Source: Octopus vulgaris
Taxonomy: Eukaryota
DNA length: 64,000 nt
Reading direction: 5' to 3'
Assembly (NCBI GenBank): GCA_951406725.2
Contig: OX597822.1
Coordinates: 115,196,001 to 115,260,000 of the forward strand
The notes under the pieces were generated by a model. The model did no database searches, was not told the origin of the DNA, and saw only the letters and a list, made by a program, of their open reading frames with translations. This document shows positions 5,214-64,000 of the stretch, piece after piece. Each line of letters begins with the position of its first letter. The first letter of the stretch is position 1. Made by a program: the position numbers and the translations under genes.

Positions 5214-5780
5214 TTGGGTTGTCCGGAAAGTTCGTGCCGATTTTTAAAGGAAAGAAAAGGGTCAATAAATACTTGCCATTACATTTTTAATCAACCAAAT
5301 ATGAACTATTTTGTTGCACAATGCGTCTCCATCTTTCCTTTAACTTGAAAATACCCTCTTCCCAGAATTGAGGGGGTTTCATGGCAAAGAATTCATCAAG
5401 GTATCTTTTTACGTCATCCAAGGAACTGACATTTTTACCATTAAGACTGTTCTGCAGAGACCCGAATAAGTGGAAATCCGAAGGAGCAATATCTGGGGAA
5501 TAGGGAGGGTGTGGGTAACACATCCCAGCCGAGTTGCAGCAATTTTTGTCTGGTTCCCAAAGCATCAAGTGCCAAAAATGAACTTCCTTATCTTCCATTT
5601 TAAAGGGTTACAGAATTAACACAGATCACAGGAACATAAACCTTCTTCCACGAAAAGATAGCTTAAACGGTGCTGTAAATGGAGGTGTAGCTAAATCCTA
5701 TTTTATGGATTCAACCATGTTCTAAAATAAGTCGAAAGATAAGCTACTATAAATCGGCACAAACTTTCCGGACAACCCAA
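5214..5780 (-). mobile_element. Internally deleted mariner transposon with near-perfect TIRs and TA TSD
   Basis: TIR TTGGGTTGTCCGGAAAGTTCGTGCCGATTT at 5214 and its reverse complement (1 mismatch) ending at 5780, with TA on both sides. ORF 5287-5598 fuses the transposase N-terminus to HPPYSPDIAPSDFHLF. Confidence 0.93.
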
Positions 5781-16600: not shown

Positions 16601-16831
16601 ATTTCTTTACTACCCACGAGGGGCTAAACATAGAGGGCACAAACAAGGACAGACATAGGTATTAAGTCGATTACATCGACCCCAGTGCGTAACTGGTACT
16701 TATTTAATCGACCCTGAAAGGATGAAATGTAAAGTCGACCTTGGCGGCATTTGAACACAGAACGTAACGGCAGACGAAATACGGCTACGCATTTCGCCCG
16801 GCGTGCTAACGTTTCTGCCAGCTCGCCGCCT
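16601..16831 (-). mobile_element. SINE family 2, full length, with Tx1-like 3' tail
   Basis: Minus strand GGCGGCGAGCTGGCAGAAACGTTAGCACGCCGGGCG...TTTCATCCTTTCAGGGTCGAT...GTGGGTAGTAAAGAAAT, followed by (AT)n. Confidence 0.88.
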
Positions 16832-24584: not shown

Positions 24585-25002
24585 ATAAAAATGACATACA
24601 GAATAGGAAACCAGACATAGTACTAATTGAGAGAGAAAGCAAACGATACTTGATCATAGACATGGCATGCCCAGCTGACAACAAGGTATGCGATAAGGAA
24701 GAAAGAAAAGTCGAGAGATATGACAGGTTAGCTTGGGAGTTAAAGCAATTGTGGTCGATGAAAAAGGTAGTAGGAGCACTAATAATTGTCAGAGCGCTGG
24801 GAACAGTGAGTAAAAGTCTTGAGAAGTACATGGAACAAATAGGGGTTACAGTAAGTGTGGAGCACTTGCAGAAAACAGCACTGCTTGGAACCGCTCCAAT
24901 ACACCGGATGATGCTCGAAACTTAAGGGATGTTACCTTAGTTCACTGGTAGTGAACAGCTGGCACTGTAATACACCTCCAGTGTTAGCAGCTGTGCAAAG
25001 GC
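24585..25002 (+). mobile_element. R4/Dong-like 3' fragment (family F)
   Basis: RKPDIVLI..IIDMACP.D..K..KVERY..L..LW..QKTALLGTA; distinct hairpin-rich 3' UTR, then (AAT)n at 25003-25189. Confidence 0.85.
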
Positions 25003-25021
25003 AATAATGATGATGATGATG

Positions 25022-25625
<604 letters not shown>

Positions 25626-25629
<4 letters not shown>

Positions 25630-27816
25630 CTAGTTACAGTAAAGTCTGTCGCATCAAAAGAAGTGCAGGAATTTTGGAATAAAATTTGGGCAGAAGAAAA
25701 AGCACTCAATGAAAAGGCTCCTTGGATTGATAGAATATCTACACACTCAGTCTCCTTAGAAGAGCAAAAGTGGGAGTGTATCAAGGTAGAGGATGTAAGA
25801 TCTGTTCTCAGGAAGTCAAGCAAATGGAACCCATCTGGTTGAATGTTTTCCAGCTTAGCAACAATGTATAAAATGCTAACATCTGTGTTGACTGAATATA
25901 CCTATAGTTTTTTTTTAATAGAAAATGGCATATTCCCTAATGAGCAAAAAGGATGTAAGCATGGGTTCTATGGTTGTAAAGATTAGCTACGATTGTCACA
26001 AGCAACACAAAAACTTGTCGATTGCCTGAATAGACTATAAAAAAGCTTTTGATAGCCTACCACATAGCTGGATTAAGAAATGTCAGGAAATGTATAAAAT
26101 AGCACCTACTCTGCGAAACTTCTCGACTGTAAGTATGAGACCATGGACAACTACACTGAATTTGAACAGTGGCAATGAATATCTTAGTGCGGGAGATGCA
26201 AGAATTTCATGTGGCATTTTCCAGGGTGCTTCTCTATCGCCACTTCTCTTTTGTTTAGCCTTAATACCTCTCTCGAAATTGCTCACTGATGTACAATACG
26301 GTTATAAATTTTTTGATAAAAATATAAATCATCTCATTTACATGGATGGTTTAAAGCTCTCTGCAAAAAATGACCAACAACTCCAGGGCTTACTAGCGAT
26401 TGTTAAACAATTCATTAATGGCCTCAGGATGCAATTTGGCCTCGATAAATGTGCAAAGGATATTTTTATCAAAGGCAAAATGACAGAAACATCTTATGTT
26501 AATCTTGACCAGCAGAATGTCATAAAGGAATTAGAACCAGTGGAGAGCTACAAATACCTTGGGGTATTTGAAGGAGACGGAATCAAACATTCAGCAATGA
26601 GGGAGAGGGTCAGATGAGAATGTTATCGCAGGGTAAGGGCAATACACAAGACAGAGCTGAATGCAAGAAACAGGATCGAAGTGATCAATAATTTAGCCAT
26701 ACCAGTCGTGACTTACAGTTTCAATATCATTCACTGGTCAATTACTGAAATATGTAATCTTGTCAGAAAAATATGAAAATTGCTAATGATGTATAGAATG
26801 CACCACCCTAAGACATAGAACGACTTTATCTTCCAAGAAAACAGGGTGGCCGTGGACTTTTACAACTGGAATTAACAATGAAGATTGCTACAATTGGCCA
26901 AAATCTCTGATGACTGGATGTGAAAACTTGACATGAAAACAAGATAGCATCATTCATAGATCATCCATGAAAACAAGAAAGCATCACACTCGGTAACAAA
27001 ATAGGCAAATAAATATCTAGAGGTGAATTCCAAATACAACAAATTCCAGAATTAGATGAACTAGAAACAAGCTCAGAAAAACTAAGTGTATGAAAACCCG
27101 AACTAAAACTACTGCCTTAGATATTCTTACTGATAAATGGCAAAAAAAAGCTCTCAATGACAAATACCCAAAGAAAACTAATATTGCTAATGTTGATAAA
27201 ACCCTTACTCATCAATGGCTAGTGACTTCTGGCTTAAAGTCAGAAACACAAGGGTTTATCATAGCAGCCCAAGATCAATGCCTACCTACAAGAAACTACC
27301 AGGCCAACATATTAAAGAACGGCAGTAGCCCAACATGTCGTGTATGTCGAAAACAAAATGAAACCACTGATCATGTTGTCTCTACGTGCAGTCCTCTTGC
27401 GCCTACAGAATATCTCAACAGTCATGATAGAGCAGCAATAGAAATTAGCAAAATGTAGAACATAAAGACTAAAACAATACCTTTGTCATGGGTGACCTAT
27501 GAATGATAGCAAAAGAGGCAAATTACTACCTAGCTCAAATACCAGGAACGCCAAAAATGGCAAAAATTCAAAAGATAGTGCTCATGGGAACTGCACATAA
27601 CCTACGTAAAATTCTGTCTATGTAATCTCATATTTTAAAACAAACTCATAAGTTTCTTGTTTTCTTAAACATTGTCTAGAACAATACTATGTGCAAAACC
27701 GAATATATGACACCTTAGGCATAACACAAACATGAACTGCTAACTTGTTGTCTCTTGAGGTCTCTGGGTGAGACTTGGAGCCATCTTGTACAAATACAAA
27801 GCAAAAGTCAAACATG
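25626..27816 (+). mobile_element. R4/Dong-like retrotransposon (family E), decayed, includes the RT domain
   Basis: IDYKKAFDSLPHSW, GIFQGASLSPLLF, HLIYMDGLKL, MQFGLDKC, YKYLG and a CCHC knuckle. Many stops and frameshifts; the RLE core is deleted near 27437. (AAT)n tail at 27817-28078. Confidence 0.9.
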
Positions 27817-27913
<97 letters not shown>

Positions 27914-27939
27914 TAAGAAGAATAATAATGATAATAATA

Positions 27940-28567
<628 letters not shown>

Positions 28568-30009: not shown

Positions 30010-31600
30010 ATACCATCATCTTGCAACTTCAACAAAGTTTGATTGCAGGGATATTAAGACCTTATTTGATTATGAATCCTCTAGAAGGTGCCCGAAAGAA
30101 TAACAGCGTGATAGTAAAGGAGTTGCAGTGATACAACATGGATGTGATGGCCTTGTCTGAAATGAGACTCTCTGAAAGGGGTCACTTCACAAAGTAATCG
30201 TGTGGTTATTCGTTTTATTGGAGTGAGAGAAGGAAAGGGTACGAGAGGAAGCTTAGTGCAGCGTCTAGAGTAAAGAAATTCATTGTTTCTTGGTTGGAAG
30301 ATTTACGTGAATTTATTGATCGCTTGATACCAGTAAGGATGCCATTGTCAAATAACAGATTTGTTACCCGAGTGAGCACCTACGCTCCAACCATGCGTTC
30401 TTCTGAAGATGAAAAACTATCATTTTATTTGTTGCTAAAGGAGCTTGTCCGGAAGATTCCTTGTACTGATGAAATTGTCATACTTTATGATTTCAACGCT
30501 AAAGTTGGCAAGAATTACGAAACCTAGCATGTAATCGGAAAACATGGAATCGGAAAGTGCAATAGAATTGGTTTGTTACTGCTACAAATGTGTCAGGAAC
30601 TAGATTTGCGCATAGTAAGCACTATGTTCCAGTAGAAGCATTAACATAATACAACCTGGATGCATTCAGACTCGAAGCATTAAAAGAGAATTGATTTTCT
30701 TCTGGTTTGCGTGAGTGATGTTCGTAATGTGTGTAGCCTCCGCGTTACGCAAGGAGATGAATACTGAATTGGCTATCGCCTTGTTCGTGCGAAGATGAAG
30801 TTTATTATAAAACTGAAAGAACCCAGGATGTGACCATTCCAAAGAAACTAAATGTGATTTGTCTGAAAGTTGATATTATTAAGGAGGTTTTGGTGGAGAA
30901 AATGAATAGCGTTCAGTTCAATCATTCATGGGATGTGCTCAAAACGTTTTTGTATGGCGTTTGTAATGATTTTCTGTGTGTAGTGGAAAGAGAGCTTGAA
31001 GACTTGTGGGATGAAAATTATCAAATTCAGATACTTTTAGATGGAAAGAGTGCCCTTGATGGAGAGCCAGAAATGCATAGGAATGAAACAGTATACAAGG
31101 TGGTGATGTGTAAGATTCAGCATAGATTTCGTAGCTACAAGATGGAGGAAGAATTAACAGATTAGATTCAATCTATATCTGACTCCAACACTAGGAAGCT
31201 TCAGTATAATTTGTTGTGAGAGGTTTATAGGCCATATTCTCCTCACGTTACTCCTTTATGTACCCTAGATGGCAAATAATGGCTCAGGGATCCTGAAGAT
31301 ATTCTTGTCGGGAAGCAAGAACACTTTTAAATATGCCGACTCAATTTGATGAGTTTGTTGGCTTCATTCTCTACATAGCCCCCCCCCCCCCGCCACAAAA
31401 AAAAAACATATTGTAGATCCTGCTACTCTTATTGAACTTGAAAATGATGTAAAAAGCTAGATGGAGGCAAGTCGTCTGTGATAGAATCTCTTTGTATTGA
31501 GATCTTGAAATGTGGAAGTGAAAACTACCTTCAACATCTAATTTAATGCCGAAGGTTTGAATTGAATAGAGTGTTTCAAGAGACTAGAAAGAATGCAAAT
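30010..31600 (+). mobile_element. Decayed RTE-clade LINE, AP-endonuclease region
   Basis: YNMDVMALSEMRL, DRLIPVRMPL..VSTYAPTM, ILYDFNAKVG, GKHGIGKCN..GLLLL, TTWMH; many stops. Confidence 0.8.
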
Positions 31601-46611: not shown

Positions 46612-47690
46612 GAGGATGATGGCAACAGACAGACCGTTTGACCACTGGAACGCGTCCCTTCCACAAGAATTTAAATAAGAGACGCTCCAACCTGGTCAAG
46701 CAAGTAACCGTGTCAAGGCACGACGGTCAGGAGATAAATGATAACAGAGGGGGTGTGAGCATTCACCAGCTCTGTCCGACCTTTCAGAGACAGCTTCCTT
46801 TCAGCCCATTTCTGGATAAGACTGGCTACCTCGTCCTAATTTTTATCAATCTATAGGTCGGAACTTAACCAGACCCCAAGCAGTTTAACAAGTTCGTCGG
46901 CCCTGTGTCCGACAATGCAGTCCGATAGCACCGTTCTGCTTCTCCAGGAGCCCAACCGCAAACCCACCGATTTGTTGGCGTTGATTTTAGCCCTTGCAAC
47001 CGACTCATATTTCTTTACCGACCGTCTCCACTTCGTAGGCATCCGACACCATGACGACACTGCCTTTCCTTGCCCCAGTTCGAAAGGGATGCCCTTTAGC
47101 TGTTCCAACTTCCGCAGCAGTAGCTCGAGTGCCAATACGTACAGAAGAGGCAGCTCTGACGGACCGGGCGTGCGATGCCAAACGGCTCCGATAGGTGGCC
47201 GTTTACTTTGGCCACTGAACAGGTGCTGCTGTGCATTGCAGCGATCTAGTCTCTGTAAAAACGGGTCCGAAACCAGCTTTCAAGACGGCTTCCAAGTAGA
47301 GATGGTCGACCCTATTGAATGCTTTTGATTGATCGAAATTGATCAGAGCACCCCCGAAGCCAGCTTTGGTTCTAGACCTCTCTATGATGTATCACATAAG
47401 GTGGGAGGTTGTCGTGTATAGACTAGCTCGGGATTGCGCACGTTTGCATTTCTCCGACCAGGCTACCGTTGACGAGCGCCAACCTTTTCGTTAACACCTT
47501 GGCCCAAATCTTAAACTCTGTGTTTAGCAGAGTTATAGGCCGAAAATTCTCTAGTACGTCCCCATTGTTGGCGTCCTTCCTCATCAGTGTCCTCACCCCT
47601 TTGCTAGCAGCACTAGGAATTCTCCCGTTCTGTTACCAGTCATGGTAGACGTCTGTCAAGAGGTCGCCAAACATAACTGGCATGAATATA
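46612..47690 (-). mobile_element. Decayed Tx1/L1-clade LINE, RT domain fragment
   Basis: Minus strand: ENFRPITLLNTEFKIWAKVL, INFDQSKAFNRVDH, LYVLALELLLRKL, AKINANKS.GL.LG.W, FKFLWKG. Confidence 0.85.
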
Positions 47691-50025: not shown

Positions 50026-51034
50026 AATATTTGTTTTTATATCGAGTTATAATACAAAAATATTAAACTGAAAAATTACTCAAAATACTTTTTAGTGTAC
50101 ATGTTCATTGTTCATTATAAATAATCGTTATTTGCACCGTCTACAGCGAGATCTGGAATGAATCTTTGCATATTTATTCATAACGCGCAGGAGCGTAGCT
50201 CTTTGGAAAATAACTTCACCCTTTAATGACAATATGTTCAATATGTTCAGCACAATCATCTCACTGGTGCACGGCATTCTCCGTTCACAGGTGTTTCGAC
50301 ATATTGTGTCTCATCAGTCAGAAGTAACCGGAGACTAACCAAATCCGATGGCTTCCTTCATTGTTTGAGCGGACTAATTGTTTTCTGAAAAGTATTCTTT
50401 ATGGTTTTAGTAGAGTGACAGTGGCATTGAACTTTCGGCCAGATAGTCTTCGAAACTTCGAAGTCGCTGTCCTTCTTACTTGCAAAGGTATAACCGATAT
50501 AATACTAAAAGTCTGTGATTGCTTGCTTGCGTGCTTCTCTGTAATTTAATACAGCCAAACCGGTGCATAATGGGAAAATACTCTGAAAGTAAGATCACCC
50601 CTGAAATGTGGATACAAACAGAATAAAACAAGTTTCGCGTAAATCGGGGGACGGATTCCCAAGATACGCGGTTTTTTAGGTTTGTTTCCACAAATGTAAG
50701 CAGTGAAATCTAGGGTTATTGCCCTTTACTCAGAACATCTGGATAGTTTTGTTTGCGTGCTTGTCTGTATTTTAATACGGCCAAACCGGCGCATAATGGG
50801 GAAAAATACTGAAAGTAAGATCACCCCTGAAATAGGAATACAAACTGAACAATAGACGTTTCGCGTAAATCGGACCACAGGTTCCCAAGATACGCGGTTT
50901 TTTGTGTGGGTGGGGGTACCTTTATGATTGCCTGCTTGCGTGCTTGTTTGTAATTTAATACAGCCATGGCCGCCTGAACTATCAGTGACTTCGAAGTTTC
51001 AAAGACTATCAGACCGAAACTTCAACGTTGCTAC

Positions 51035-51511
51035 CATCTCAACTCCGCATATTTAGTTCAAACGTAAAATTTGTGCTTTTGTATAGCTCTGAAACATGGA
51101 GAGCCACCTGCAACAACTACAAGAAGATCCAGACAGTCATCGACATATGTCTCCGGCAGATCCTCCATCTGAAGTGGTTCGACAGAGTGTCAAACACAGA
51201 CCTATGGCAAAGGGCCAACCAGGAGTCCATACATGTTCAGATTAGACGAAGGAAATGGAGATGGATCGGGCACACACTGTGGAAAGAACCCTCAAATGTG
51301 GAACGACAAGACTAGAACTTGACTAGAACCTGCAGGGGAAAAGGAAGCGAGGACGCCCGAAGCAGACATGAAAGCGGAGCATTTTGGACGAGTTCAGGAC
51401 CACCGGCCTGACATGGGACGCAGCCAAGAAACACGCCAATGACCGCAAAAAGTGGAAAACAACTGTGAGGCCCTATGCTCCACAAGGGGCAAAAAGGATT
51501 GAGAAGAAGAA
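51035..51511 (+). mobile_element. RTE-type LINE 3' fragment with (GAA)n tail
   Basis: LRIFSSNVKFVLLYSSETW..IRRRKWRWIGHTL..NLQGKRKRGRPKQT. Confidence 0.85.
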
Positions 51512-51721
51512 TACCGGCGCATAATGGGAAAATACTTTGGAAGTAATGTACCATTGAAATGTGAATACATACGGAATAAAACAAGTTTCGCGTAAATCGG
51601 GGGACGGGTTCCCGAGATACGCTCTGTTTTAGATTAGCTTTATAAATAGCCAAACCGGTGCGTAATGGGGAAAATGCTTTGAAAGTAAGGTACCATTGAA
51701 ATGACAATACTTGAATTAAGA

Positions 51722-52106
51722 GGGCGAGCTGGCAGAAACGTTAGCACGCCGGGCGAAATGCTTAGCAGTATTTCGTCTGCCATTACGTTCTGAGTTCAAA
51801 TTCTACCGAGGTCGACCTTGCCTTTCATCCTTTCGGGGTCGATAAATTAAGTACTAGTTACGCACTAGGGTCGATGTAATCGACTTAATCCGTTTGTCTG
51901 TCCTTGTTTGTCCCATCTGTGTTTAGCCCCTTGTGGGTAGTAAAGAAATAGGTATTTCGTCTGTCTTTATGTTCTGAGTTCAAATTTCGCCGAGGTCGAC
52001 TTTGCCTTTCGTCCTTTCAGGGTCGATAAATTAAGTACCAGTTGGTCGATCTAATCGGCTGGCCCCCTCCCCCAAAATTTCGGTCCTTGTGTCTAAAGTA
52101 GGAAAG
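51722..52106 (+). mobile_element. Dimeric SINE family 2: full monomer with Tx1-like tail, then a partial monomer with the alternative tail
   Basis: GTATTTCGTCTG..TTCTGAGTTCAAATT..GAGGTCGAC occurs at 51767 and again at 51952; AATAC is duplicated on both sides of the insertion. Confidence 0.85.
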
Positions 52107-52497
52107 AATACAAACGGAATAAAACAAGTTCCAAGTGAATCGGACCACGGGTTCCCGAGACACGCGGTTTTTCCGAGTACCTTGAACTACTGATAACCCA
52201 ATGGGTCACGGGAAGTCTAGCATATATGATTCTTTCTTTCTTGTTTGTTCCCGTCTGGGCTATGAAAGGTCTTTTTTATACTTTTGTTGGTCGTAATTAT
52301 TCATACAAATATGTAATTCCTCGCGAAGAATCTAATTTTCATTTCAAGAGGAGTTTTTCGTGTTTGTCTTTGGAATTAATTAAACTCCGAAACACAATGT
52401 AGAATTTATATTAGATCTGTACCAACCTGGATTATGAATTAAAGATCGTCTACACCTACAATTTTTTTTCTTTTCCTTATACTTCAATTATATATAC

Positions 52498-52981
52498 TAC
52501 ATTGAGGAAAAGGATCATGCGCAGTGATAAAATAATGATTTTTTTTTTCGTAAGAATTTATCCAAAAACAACAACAACTTTTCATTTTCCACGACCTTCT
52601 CTCAATGATCTGCAAGCTTTCGGATTTGGTCAAAGTACCAATCCTTCGGATTTGAATCGAAAAATTCTTGACAGGCTTCTTCAACTTCATCGAATGACTT
52701 TTCATAACGTGCTGCACTGATCGGGAGAGACTGTAGTCAGATAGAGCAATGTCTGGACTATAGGCTGAATGCGGCAGAACTTCAACACCGTCCAGTTCTT
52801 CAATCGTGCGGCTTTGCATTGTTTTGTTGAAATAGAGCGCGATTTCGACAAACAAGCTTTGGTTACTTTTCAACAGTGAGTCATCATTGAACACGACATG
52901 AACTGAATGGACACACACACCACAAAAATATATATAAAAGCATTATTTTCACACGGCGCACGAACTTTTTCCTCAACCTAT
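52498..52981 (-). mobile_element. Internally deleted, decayed mariner
   Basis: EVLPHSAYSPDIALSDYSL; imperfect TIRs TTGAGGAAAAGGATCATGCGCAGTG / CACGGCGCACGAACTTTTTCCTCAA. Confidence 0.8.
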
Positions 52982-53096: not shown

Positions 53097-56000
53097 TGTT
53101 GTAACGTAATTTGTCACGTACACTAAATAAGACATCAGACATCTACTGCGAGAAAGTGTAATTTCTTTTATTTTTTCTTTCCACTACCTCTCCCTCTTTT
53201 TTATTTTACTTGTTGCATATTAATTGTTGCCCGACTTTTAAGGTAGTATTGTTCATTGTACACAACACTTTTTCTTTTCGTTGTACTAAGCATTCTTTTT
53301 TGTTGTTTTTTTTTATCAAAAATTAATATCTGTTACATTTAGGCATTACTTCCAGATATCCAGTTTGTTTTCGTTTTCTGAAGCTAGCTATACGGGGTTC
53401 AATATCTCTTGGTGTTGGCACCTCAAACATCATGGAAGACTTCCATTGAAATTACCTTTCGTTCTTCTGTATATCTCATCTTTAACTGGTTAAGGTGTCT
53501 CTTATGTTTCGAACGTTGTCCTTTAATCAAATATATCATGTTACCTAATCTTTTGATCACACAGCCACCCTCCCAACCTTCTTTACCATTTTTGTAATTT
53601 TTAAAATGAACTTTATCTCCTACTTCGAAATGTTTTGTAATATTTCTTGTATTTCCTTCAAATGTATTTTTGTCTTTCCTTTATATGTATTTTTTCCTGG
53701 CAATAATTTATCAAAGATCGATTTTATTTTACGCGCGAACACTAACTCTGCTGCTGACTTTCCTGAATTAGTATTTGGATTTGGCGTTATTCTATACGCT
53801 GTCAAAAATGTTGCCAGTGCCTCGTCAGTATCTAGCATTTCCGTGATTTTCTTAGAGCTCTTTTCAACGTGTCGACAAATCTTTCCGCCTGCCTGTTTCA
53901 CCTCGGGTGGTAGGGCGGCGTAAAGATGTTCTTTATGGCATGTATTTTGCAGATATTTCTTAATCCATATCCCGTGAATTGTGTTCCATTATCTGAAACT
54001 AAATTGTCAGGAACACCGTATCGAGAAAATAGCTCGAGTAGGAACTTTATTGTTGTCTTTGCTGTGGGTTTATTACATCTGCACACCTCTGACCACTTTG
54101 TATAACTATCCACAACGATTGGATAGTATGCAGCTTTCACTGGTACAGCGTAGTCGATATGTAACCTGGACCATGGACTTTCAGTCTCCGACCACGATTG
54201 GTTTTTTACTGTTGGTGCTTTGGTTGCCAATGCGCAACCTCTACATGCTTCCATCAATTCCTCGATGTCCCTGTCCATAGTCGGCCAGTATACAAAGCTC
54301 CTAATTAAAGCTTTCATTCTGGACATTCCCGAGTGCCTATAGTGGAATTGTTGCAATACTCGTTTCTGTAGTGCACTTGGTACTACTACTTTCTGCGCGT
54401 ATTTTAAGACATTGTCGCATAGTGAGAAATTATTTCTTTCGTCTTTGTAATGTAACTAGCCTCTGCGGATTATACACAATAATTCTTACTTCATTTTCAG
54501 ACTGCAATGACGCTATCACGGTCTCTTCTAGCGGCCGAGATAAGCAGTCTGCATGACCAATTTTCTTCGACGGAATATGCTGCATCTTAAAATTGTAGTT
54601 CAGCAATAGTGTACCCTAGCATTGTAGTCGGCTCGCTGTATGGGTAGGCGATCCCTTCTTTGATCCAAAAATTGATAGCAAAAGTCGATGGTCGGTTTGT
54701 AACAAAGAATTTTTACCACGGAGGAATTTATAAAAAATTTTTCCGCAAAAATAATCGATACAGCTTCCTTCTCTATCTGACTATAATTTTTCCGCTGCTA
54801 TCAGCGAACGTGAAGCAGGAACTATTGGCTTCATTATTCCATCTTTATACTTGTGTAGCAAGACTGCTCCTATTCCATAATCCGAAGTATCAAACGCTAC
54901 AACAATGTCCATTCCAGGATCGAAATGTGCTAGTAACAAGTCAGGAATTCGAATTTTCTTTATGTCTTCAAATGAGGTTTGGCACTTTACTGATCGATTC
55001 CATTTTACTTCTCTTTGTAGTAAATCGTTCAATGGTGCTCTCAATTTATGTATATTTGGAATGTACTGTTGATAGTAAATTACCAGGCCAAGGAAAGCTT
55101 GTAATGTCGGTATATCCGTTGGAGGAAGCATATTCTTGATTGCGTCTGCCCTCGACGGGTAAGTACGACTTGCATTTTTATCTATGATTTGACCTAGGCA
55201 TTTGATTTTAGGCCAAAATATTCACACTTCTCTTCACTGAGTGTGAAACCATAATCTTTAATTTTTTAAAGACACAGTTCACGTGTTCAATATGTTCATT
55301 CCGCGATTCGCTTTTGATTAAGACGTTATCAAGGTAAGGAATAGCCAATTGACTGTCTGCCAACATCGCATCGATCACCTGTTGAAATATTGCAGGTGCT
55401 ACCTTCAGTTCAAAACGTAGTCTATTATATTTGTATAGTCCTCTGTGCGTGTTGGCCGTTAACAGCTTGGATCATTTTTTATCTACTTTGATTCGTAGAT
55501 TTACGTCTGACAGATCGAATTTTGACAATATTTTACCTCCGTTTCATTTTGTAAAAATATCTTCTGGGGTCGCTCGTGGCTGATGGTTCATTTTTAAACA
55601 GTCATTTAAATCGGTCGAAAAATCGGCACACGACCTAATTTTGTTGTTTTTCTTTTCTGTGCCATCCATTTCGCGTAATCCACTTTTTCAATGATTTCTT
55701 TTTATTTTTTTTTCTAATCTGTCCAACTCATCGTCCACTTGTTTTATTGCCGCAAAAGAGACTTTCTTATTAGGCTTGAACACAGGTGTAATGTTATCAT
55801 CTAATTCAAAACACGCTTCAGTCTTTGTGCATAGACCTAGTTTGTCCGAGAGCTCATGCGGAAACATTAAAAAAAATTTTCTCTTTAACTCTTCAGAAGA
55901 ATTATTTTCAGACGGACAACCATTTATGTTTTTACAATAGAGATTTATGGGCAGATTTCACTGTTTTTCTCAAAATAGGTCTCCCTATTTTCTTCTATGT

Positions 56001-62709: not shown

Positions 62710-62802
62710 AGATAGACAGACAGATAGATGGATGGATAAATAGATAGATAGAAAGATAGTTAGCTAGCTAGCTAGCTAGGTAGATAGATAGGTATATTGA
62801 TT

Positions 62803-62839
<37 letters not shown>

Positions 62840-62840
62840 G

Positions 62841-62914
<74 letters not shown>

Positions 62915-62915
62915 T

Positions 62916-62947
<32 letters not shown>
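62710..62947. repeat. (GATA)n microsatellite abutting the Tx1 3' end
   Basis: Read directly from the sequence. Confidence 0.95.
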
Positions 62948-64000
62948 GTTTCTTTATTGGCCACACAGGGCTGCACACAGATGGGACAAGTTACAAGGTA
63001 GAGCTTTTCTTTTGGGGGATGAAAAAAACAAAAGAAACAAAAAAAGGGGTGGCGTAGGTTTTCGATCAAGAGGGATCGTAAAAGGGAAACAAAAAAAAAA
63101 AAATAAAAAAAAAAAAAGAAAAATTTAAAAAAAAAGAAGAAAAAAGGAAAAGGAACAAAAGAAAAGAGAAATGAAAAAGAAGAAAAAATGGGAAGAAAAG
63201 GGGAAGAGGAAAAAAAACCGATCAATAGGGATCGTGTATCACAGTGTTATGATATATGGTGTAAAGGGGAAAGCAAGTAAGGTTTATCCATGGGAAGAAA
63301 AGCCTACGAAAAAGACCACGGTAACCTTGGTCAATATTGTTATATGTTACCACATTTGTTTGCAAGTGGGTAACCCTCTGTTTTCAATTTCTGGGTTCAT
63401 AGGATTATGCTCAAGGTGGCTTCGTCATTCATACGTGCCATCCTTGCTACATTCACCCATCTTTTTTTAAAACATTCGCTAGACAAAACATTGCCTCTCT
63501 ACTCTCACTTTCCTTTTCAAGTGGTACTTGAAGAAGTTGATGAGAGATTGACCAGAGAGGAAAGTGTTTGTCTCCAATCCTTTCAGACGCGTCCACCAGA
63601 TACATTCTTTCGCCATAGCCACAAGGATGATGAAAATAGCTCTTCCTTCCCGTTTGAAGGAAGGAGGCGTGACAATATTGACGATAGACTCAGCTGATAA
63701 ACCGACTCGTCCCACACGCGACAGCAGTTGTTCGACATAAGCCCACAGGTCGGAAATTGTTGGACACTGCACGAGTGCGTGCAGAACGGTTTCGTCGCTC
63801 TGACCGCATCTCGGGCAGGTCGGCCCCGTGTTTCTCGAGCCGTGTCTGTAGAGCTTATCCCGAACGGGTAGCGCTTCTCGGTAGCACTGCCAGGCCAGGG
63901 ATCTCTGGAAGTTGTCCATGGGCCCTGGCCCGAAAGTCGTCCCGAACAGGCGGGTCAGGTACTCCTCGTCGACGTCCAGGTTCATCCCTCTGATGCTAAT
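62948..64000 (-). mobile_element. Tx1/L1-clade LINE 3' end (zf-RVT C-terminus and 3' UTR); continues beyond the window
   Basis: LAWQCYREALPVRDKL..CPRCGQSDETVLHALVQCP..W; frameshift near 63485 with the probable true stop at 63397-63399; pyrimidine-rich 3' UTR ending GCCAATAAAGAAAC, then (TATC)n. Confidence 0.88.

Follow-up and report, generated by a model that had tools for sequence, protein, structure and literature searches.

An abundant SINE of Octopus vulgaris ends in a 3′ tail related to those of Tx1-like LINEs, one family of which inserts into the SINE itself

Introduction

Stringent SINE/LINE pairs within the L1 clade have been described for ZmSINE2/3 with LINE1-1_ZM and for SINEX-3_CR with L1-1_CR, so that L1-tailed SINEs have precedents in maize and Chlamydomonas; the maize pair displays a hairpin with compensatory changes, and Table 1 of the same article lists no Tx1 partner (Ohshima 2013, PMC3747384, in its accessible part). 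The octopus SINE described herein resembles these elements in sharing its tail with an L1-clade LINE. Mobilisation by Tx1 LINEs has been inferred for the crocodilian SINEU elements (Kojima 2015, PMC4494074), and the octopus system is similar to SINEU and Tx1-Mar in its inferred Tx1 mobilisation, common target site and tandem SINE insertions. SINEU elements combine an snRNA head with a poly(A) tail, whereas the octopus SINE harbours a homologous LINE tail and no poly(A). In the available portion of that article, the 3′ half of SINEU-1 is similar to no Repbase LINE and the link is drawn from targets, not from tail homology; furthermore, the target of SINEU and Tx1-Mar is a Mariner element, whilst that of octopus family K is the SINE itself.

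Tx1 elements that target microsatellites include Kibi in (TC)n, Koshi in (TTC)n and crocodilian elements in (TTCC)n or (TTTC)n (PMC4494074, in part). Family A, to which the LINE that shares the SINE tail in the sequence analysed herein belongs, is likewise an APE-type, Tx1-like element residing in a microsatellite, although its target, (TCTA)n, differs and our tree joins it no closer to fish elements than other families. Octopus tRNA-SINEs termed OK, OR1 and OR2 were reportedly described by Ohshima and Okada in 1994. The wider octopus record comprises these tRNA-SINEs, the tRNA-Deu and CORE classes, abundant SINEs in general and active L1-Tx1 families, with no partner LINE named for OK/OR1/OR2 or tRNA-Deu/CORE in the accessible parts of the two articles (PMC8967140, PMC13282606); the repeat library of the latter may already hold the families presented below. 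Within the article texts searched, no SINE/Tx1 pair with a common tail was found, nor any LINE that targets a SINE or lands in its own passenger SINE. The available portions of PMC4758252, PMC4824008, PMC11481361, PMC5786205, PMC5804259 and PMC4640811 contain no such case, and 'TX1' in the accessible text of PMC4176376 denotes mutant protein names.

Results

The shared 3′ tail

The window, i.e. the whole stretch of DNA analysed, comprises 64,000 nt of O. vulgaris (assembly GCA_951406725.2, contig OX597822.1, forward-strand positions 115,196,001 to 115,260,000) and contains the following features.

16601..16829 (−): monomeric SINE copy with Tx1-type tail and TA-rich flanks
46640..47640 (−): decayed RT fragment of an older Tx1-like family, B; genome copies have a related tail followed by (ATT/CAT)n
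51722..51767 (+): SINE head containing an A-box-like motif; elsewhere in the genome, family K inserts at base 46/47
51768..51949 (+): SINE unit 1, with B-box-like motif, body and Tx1-type tail at ~51895-51949
51952..52108 (+): SINE unit 2, which starts again at SINE base 47 and has a different terminal tail (tail 1)
62760..62944 (−): (TCTA)n array, the usual family A target; in the window copy the array is on the 3′ side only
62947..63983 (−): 5′-truncated copy of Tx1-like LINE family A (ORF2 end and 3′ UTR), 95 % identical to the near-full copy L037 from L037 base 5057 onward
62948..62998 (−): LINE 3′ tail common to the SINE, with a predicted 3-bp hairpin ahead of AATAAAGAAA
63479..63983 (−): ORF2 C-terminal fragment with zf-RVT zinc finger (PF13966, E 3e-8); frame broken near 63480

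A sequence-only reading had proposed that the SINE tail at 51902-51949 (+) corresponds to the 3′ end of the LINE at 62948-62998 (−), and both were located where it placed them. Their alignment displays 40 identities in 50 columns and a score of 50, which is well above that of dinucleotide shuffles (mean 13.7, maximum 27, 0 of 5000 as high), and includes a 15-nt identical run and a common AAAGAAA end. The SINE at 16601-16655 (−) indeed has the same type of tail (score 30, shuffle maximum 28, 0 of 5000), and a scan of a 6,124-nt near-full LINE copy returns its 3′ end as the top match to the SINE tail (50, with at most 18 elsewhere). The concern that the LINE end might be an inserted SINE tail is removed by the 30 family A copies fetched, as the tail is the LINE's own 3′ end in every one. 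The 15-base identity, whilst present in the pair for which it was reported, depends on a minority SINE variant, found by hand count in 8 of 25 complete copies chosen for likeness to the 51722 copy, in none of the 99 position-sampled tails detailed below, and not in the 16601 copy. The tail at 51902-51949 is also internal, residing inside a dimer that runs on to ~52108.

Structure and abundance of the SINE

The SINE monomer is 229 nt in length, and contains A- and B-box-like motifs assigned by eye against the consensus; no tRNA (ARAGORN, 0) or Rfam match (0) was returned for it. With at least 81,605 exact genome matches to a 30-nt tail pattern (control 0) and target duplications of 10-24 bp, it is short, non-coding, high in copy number and flanked in the manner of a SINE. 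In a second set of complete copies, part of it selected, 31 of 55 are bordered by duplications of at least 9 bp (control 7 of 300). Target duplications of the SINE often start with GGTA. A pyrimidine occupies target base −1 in 20 of 28 cases, with no significant repeat in a second sample (6 of 10).

A sample drawn by position, from the first 100 places listed for contig C1, yielded 90 regions and 99 distinct SINE tails, 98 of which are attached to a SINE body. Almost half (49) run into a further SINE unit starting at base 46/47, 4 continue at SINE base 14 and 46 are terminal; amongst these last, a target-site duplication of 10-18 bp accompanies 15 and an AGGT remnant lies behind 17. Poly(A) was found after neither the SINE tails nor those of the related LINEs. 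The junctions of tandem SINEs are almost uniform, and the C allele at the SINE-in-SINE junction, which would mark fresh K-type insertions, is not enriched (16 C and 26 T by hand count among the first 100 listed), indicating that inheritance, rather than fresh insertion of this kind, likely accounts for most tandems.

A second SINE subfamily has the same head and body with a different tail (52060-52108 and many other loci), often before (ATT)n. No LINE partner for this tail 1 was found among the sampled loci, and comparison by eye with a Dong/R4-like 3′ end at 2626-2730 gave no match. The dimer in the window is inserted in a tandem repeat of ~150-bp period (51500-51720, 52108-52200).

Tx1-like families with related tails

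Families were sampled by a zf-RVT search, in which 150 of 25,803 candidates were scored and 88 fetched, and by adding relatives of families B, C, D and K. Most of the sampled Tx1-like families terminate in related tails. To differing extents, their 3′ ends have in common TGTCC..TCTATGT, a short stem and AATAAAGAAA; families G and H retain little of this beyond the hairpin and a terminal AATAAAG motif. The 3′ ends lie at one place within each family, and target-site duplications of the LINEs are mostly 13-24 bp. The homology between SINE and LINE is 3′-coterminal, with median matches to the last 41 nt of the SINE, across the 99 tails, of 37 for families D and E, 34 for K, 32 for A and 31 for C. 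Family C instead resembles a more upstream portion of the tail, for ~25-30 nt; the 55-nt SINE tail has a C-like 5′ part and a D/E-like 3′ part. The whole 55 nt occurs in no sampled LINE family, and two patterns designed for the exact donor returned 0 matches, although a donor with other upstream sequence would escape these.

In a tree built from the C-terminal halves of natural ORF2s by a quick method with no bootstrap and no L1 references, K, D, E and F form a single clade (SH-aLRT 100) that excludes A, and A also falls outside a 14-row clade (99) of these four with C, G, H and J. Copies of families I and B (L148, L233; L082-L099) are followed by (ATT)n or (CAT)n arrays, and the two families fall near A with weak support, suggesting that I, B and A may form a microsatellite-targeting branch. 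By eye, families D and E display no GGTAT preference. Repeated, family-specific 3′ flanks accompany other Tx1-like copies (L133/L134/L213/L214/L219/L230; L138/L142/L144/L231; L121/L152-L154/L156; L141/L143), some of which form tandem stacks (C2:73.04-73.07 Mb); the flanks suggest that additional fixed targets lie within other repeats. SINE base 14 serves as another junction, both for family D copies and for SINE tandems (L205/L348, L209, L254, L257), with a 22-bp duplication at L348.

The predicted terminal hairpin

That recognition of the tail is stringent had been part of the original proposal, and this element of it finds moderate support from covariation and none from folding energy. A stem of 3-6 bp ending at most 3 nt from AATAAA is predicted in 20 of 20 representatives, despite a sequence that turns over between families (GCCC/GGGY, CCT/AGG, GATT/AATC). 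Watson-Crick pairs sum to 74, above every shuffle (mean 54, maximum 72, 0 of 500), with no single family significant alone. For a 4-bp stem derived from the SINE, a 19-row alignment gives 72 % paired cells (0 of 500) and a covariation score of 0.386 (1 of 500), with pairs altered on both sides at a frequency that is not significant (101 of 500); in these stem tests the structure comes from the same data and the alignment rows are related. RNAalifold returned no consensus structure for the tails, and folding energies are those of ordinary single-strand folds (z-scores −1.04 to +0.85). A second hairpin register received no support. Overall, the conserved hairpin has moderate support.

The tail could alternatively have been taken from Tx1 elements whose ORF2 is relaxed, with priming by microhomology near AATAAA and a hairpin that is no recognition signal. 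Such an ORF2 would sit well with stems this short and no more stable than shuffles, with the RNAalifold outcome, and with the GGTAT often common to SINE 3′ junctions and target. It is, however, rather unlikely, given that the stem keeps its place in all 20 representatives, that both its summed pairing and its covariation stand out from shuffles, and that each family has a single 3′ end position.

Classification and target of family A

The near-full copy L037 encodes APE, RT and zf-RVT domains (PF03372, PF00078 and PF13966) in a frame of 1,126 aa. Family A ORF2 scores 148 bits against human L1 ORF2p and at most 62 against R2; against a database of the same size, three fish proteins annotated automatically as TX1 give 233-268 bits, the nine fish proteins tested spanning 175-294. 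The nearest named relative, at 65 %, is from Argonauta, and a protein atlas search returned Pfam-level names only. With an APE endonuclease followed by an RT, and being closest to L1 among known clades, family A ORF2 belongs to the L1 group of non-LTR retrotransposons, which bears out the earlier Tx1/L1-clade assignment; membership of the Tx1 clade is likely from bit scores, set beside a tree without L1 references. The combination of target preference with an APE-type endonuclease, as in Tx1 elements, is seen in family A, within (TCTA)n, and in family K, at SINE base 46/47. A CCHC zinc knuckle in ORF1 is a feature of the Tx1 clade, and one is present in family K (PF00098, E 2.5e-5); in family A, CX2CX4HX4C was seen by eye in ORF1 and a Pfam search gave no match.

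Of 2,676 first-look candidates for family A in the genome, 40 were scored and the 30 copies mentioned above were fetched. TCTA/TCTG arrays adjoin the 3′ end in 28 of 30 copies and the 5′ end in 20 of the 29 in which it is visible, as against 0.4 % for TCTA arrays in a background sample. Family A is therefore microsatellite-specific, with (TCTA)n as its target.

This target does not accord with the proposal that the window LINE is the main partner of the SINE. Family A has a significant tail match, is numerous and, with ~95 % identity between copies, is of similar age, and one SINE copy (L026) lies inside a TCTA array. Nevertheless, a TCTA array follows 0 of 46 terminal SINE tails, a mismatch that largely refutes the proposal; the tail match of family A is below that of D, E and K, the 15-nt identity is a rare variant, and L026 came from a locus chosen for family A. 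The insertion signature of the SINE is not that of family A and is in part that of K, sister families either matching the tail better or sharing the SINE junction. We thus regard family A as a very unlikely main partner; it is likely a cousin of the true helper, and may move the SINE now and then, as at L026.

Insertions of family K within the SINE

The first K copy found in the SINE is flanked by a 13-bp duplication of SINE bases 46-58. SINE base 46/47 directly follows the K tail in 30 of 30 BLAST hits with a query that ended at the tail. A K tail pattern has 72 exact genome copies, compared with 81,605 SINE tails, and 27 of the first 30 of these 72 lie at SINE base 46/47; the other three are at a GATATT site, at a GGTATT site and in a SINE, L360, which carries three diagnostic hairpin bases of K. 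In 20 extended K loci, SINE bases 1-58 are found upstream in 16, a partial or displaced head in 2 and none in 2. Contigs of two other public runs also cross the K-SINE junction (X2 by 31 nt, X16 by 34 nt).

K is mostly younger than the SINE. For K pairs at least 98 % identical (80 of 190), the flanking SINEs are 91.6 % identical (maximum 96 %), no more alike than a background of 25 copies (91.5 %), which argues for independent insertions. The same comparison bears on whether these loci are a single composite, SINE head, K and SINE body transposing as a whole, rather than the product of targeting. A composite is in keeping with the 16 of 20 K copies that are near full length with a head attached, with the lack of a SINE head upstream of 2 truncated K copies, and with the correlation of LINE and flanking-SINE identity across all 190 pairs (rho 0.43). 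It is highly improbable even so: near-identical K copies occupy SINEs as divergent as random ones, the downstream SINE parts differ in subfamily, unit number and tail, and the junction base tracks the host allele (L319). Near-full copies make up 16 of 20 in family K (L311-L330) and 2 of 30 in family A; the excess of complete K insertions may reflect homology between the RNA 5′ end and the target, or else the search ranking.

Other elements in the window

LINE fragments at 1-1065, 1519-2730, 24700-25400 and 26030-28480 (+) lie beside (TAA)n runs, and come from a LINE with a restriction-like endonuclease C-terminus that is R4/Dong-like by its motifs. By eye, decayed Ty3/gypsy-like RT/RNase H and integrase frames are found at 53500-55221 (−), and Mariner-like transposase and RTE-like LINE fragments at 5287-5607 and 52484-52942 (−) and at 30198-30527 and 50989-51315 (+).

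Discussion

The SINE carries at its terminus the 3′ tail found in a group of Tx1-like LINEs, and is probably copied by their RT, most likely that of the K/D/E/F clade rather than of family A. Coincidental likeness of the tails, or a SINE tail inserted at the LINE end, scarcely merits consideration: both tails are of low complexity and the longest identical run hangs on a variant, yet shuffling already refutes chance, and the end is the same in all family A copies and homologous across the sampled families.

With regard to mechanism, ORF2 of the K/D/E/F clade would recognise the SINE tail via the small hairpin just before AATAAAGAAA, nick a GGTAT-like target, and begin cDNA synthesis a few bases beyond the tail, just past AAAGAAAT, without poly(A). 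An older SINE with tail 1 probably received a K-type insertion, or underwent a template switch, at base 46/47, giving head, body, Tx1 tail, body and tail 1, the structure at 51722-52108. Read-through transcripts of SINE tandems likely seeded the expansion; such RNAs would account for the multimers as well as for the AGGT remnant of terminal tails. Due to the low copy number of K, it may be that D, E or an extinct relative performed most of the copying.

A closed loop may tentatively be drawn from this, although we hold it with less than even confidence: a Tx1 lineage would land in the very SINE that it mobilises, that insertion would have given the SINE its Tx1 tail, with the 51722-52108 dimer as the record, and animal Tx1 elements would recognise a 3-6 bp hairpin with AAUAAAGAAA in place of poly(A).

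The pairing proposed here offers a probable driver for one of the octopus genome's largest repeat families, and would provide an animal case, within the L1 group, of tail-based mobilisation that is independent of poly(A). Such a case is relevant to the model of PMC3747384, in which stringent recognition is the ancestral state of the L1 group. Several of the families have intact ORF2s but differ in their targets and in their stems, so that an assay should be able to separate RNA recognition from the choice of target.
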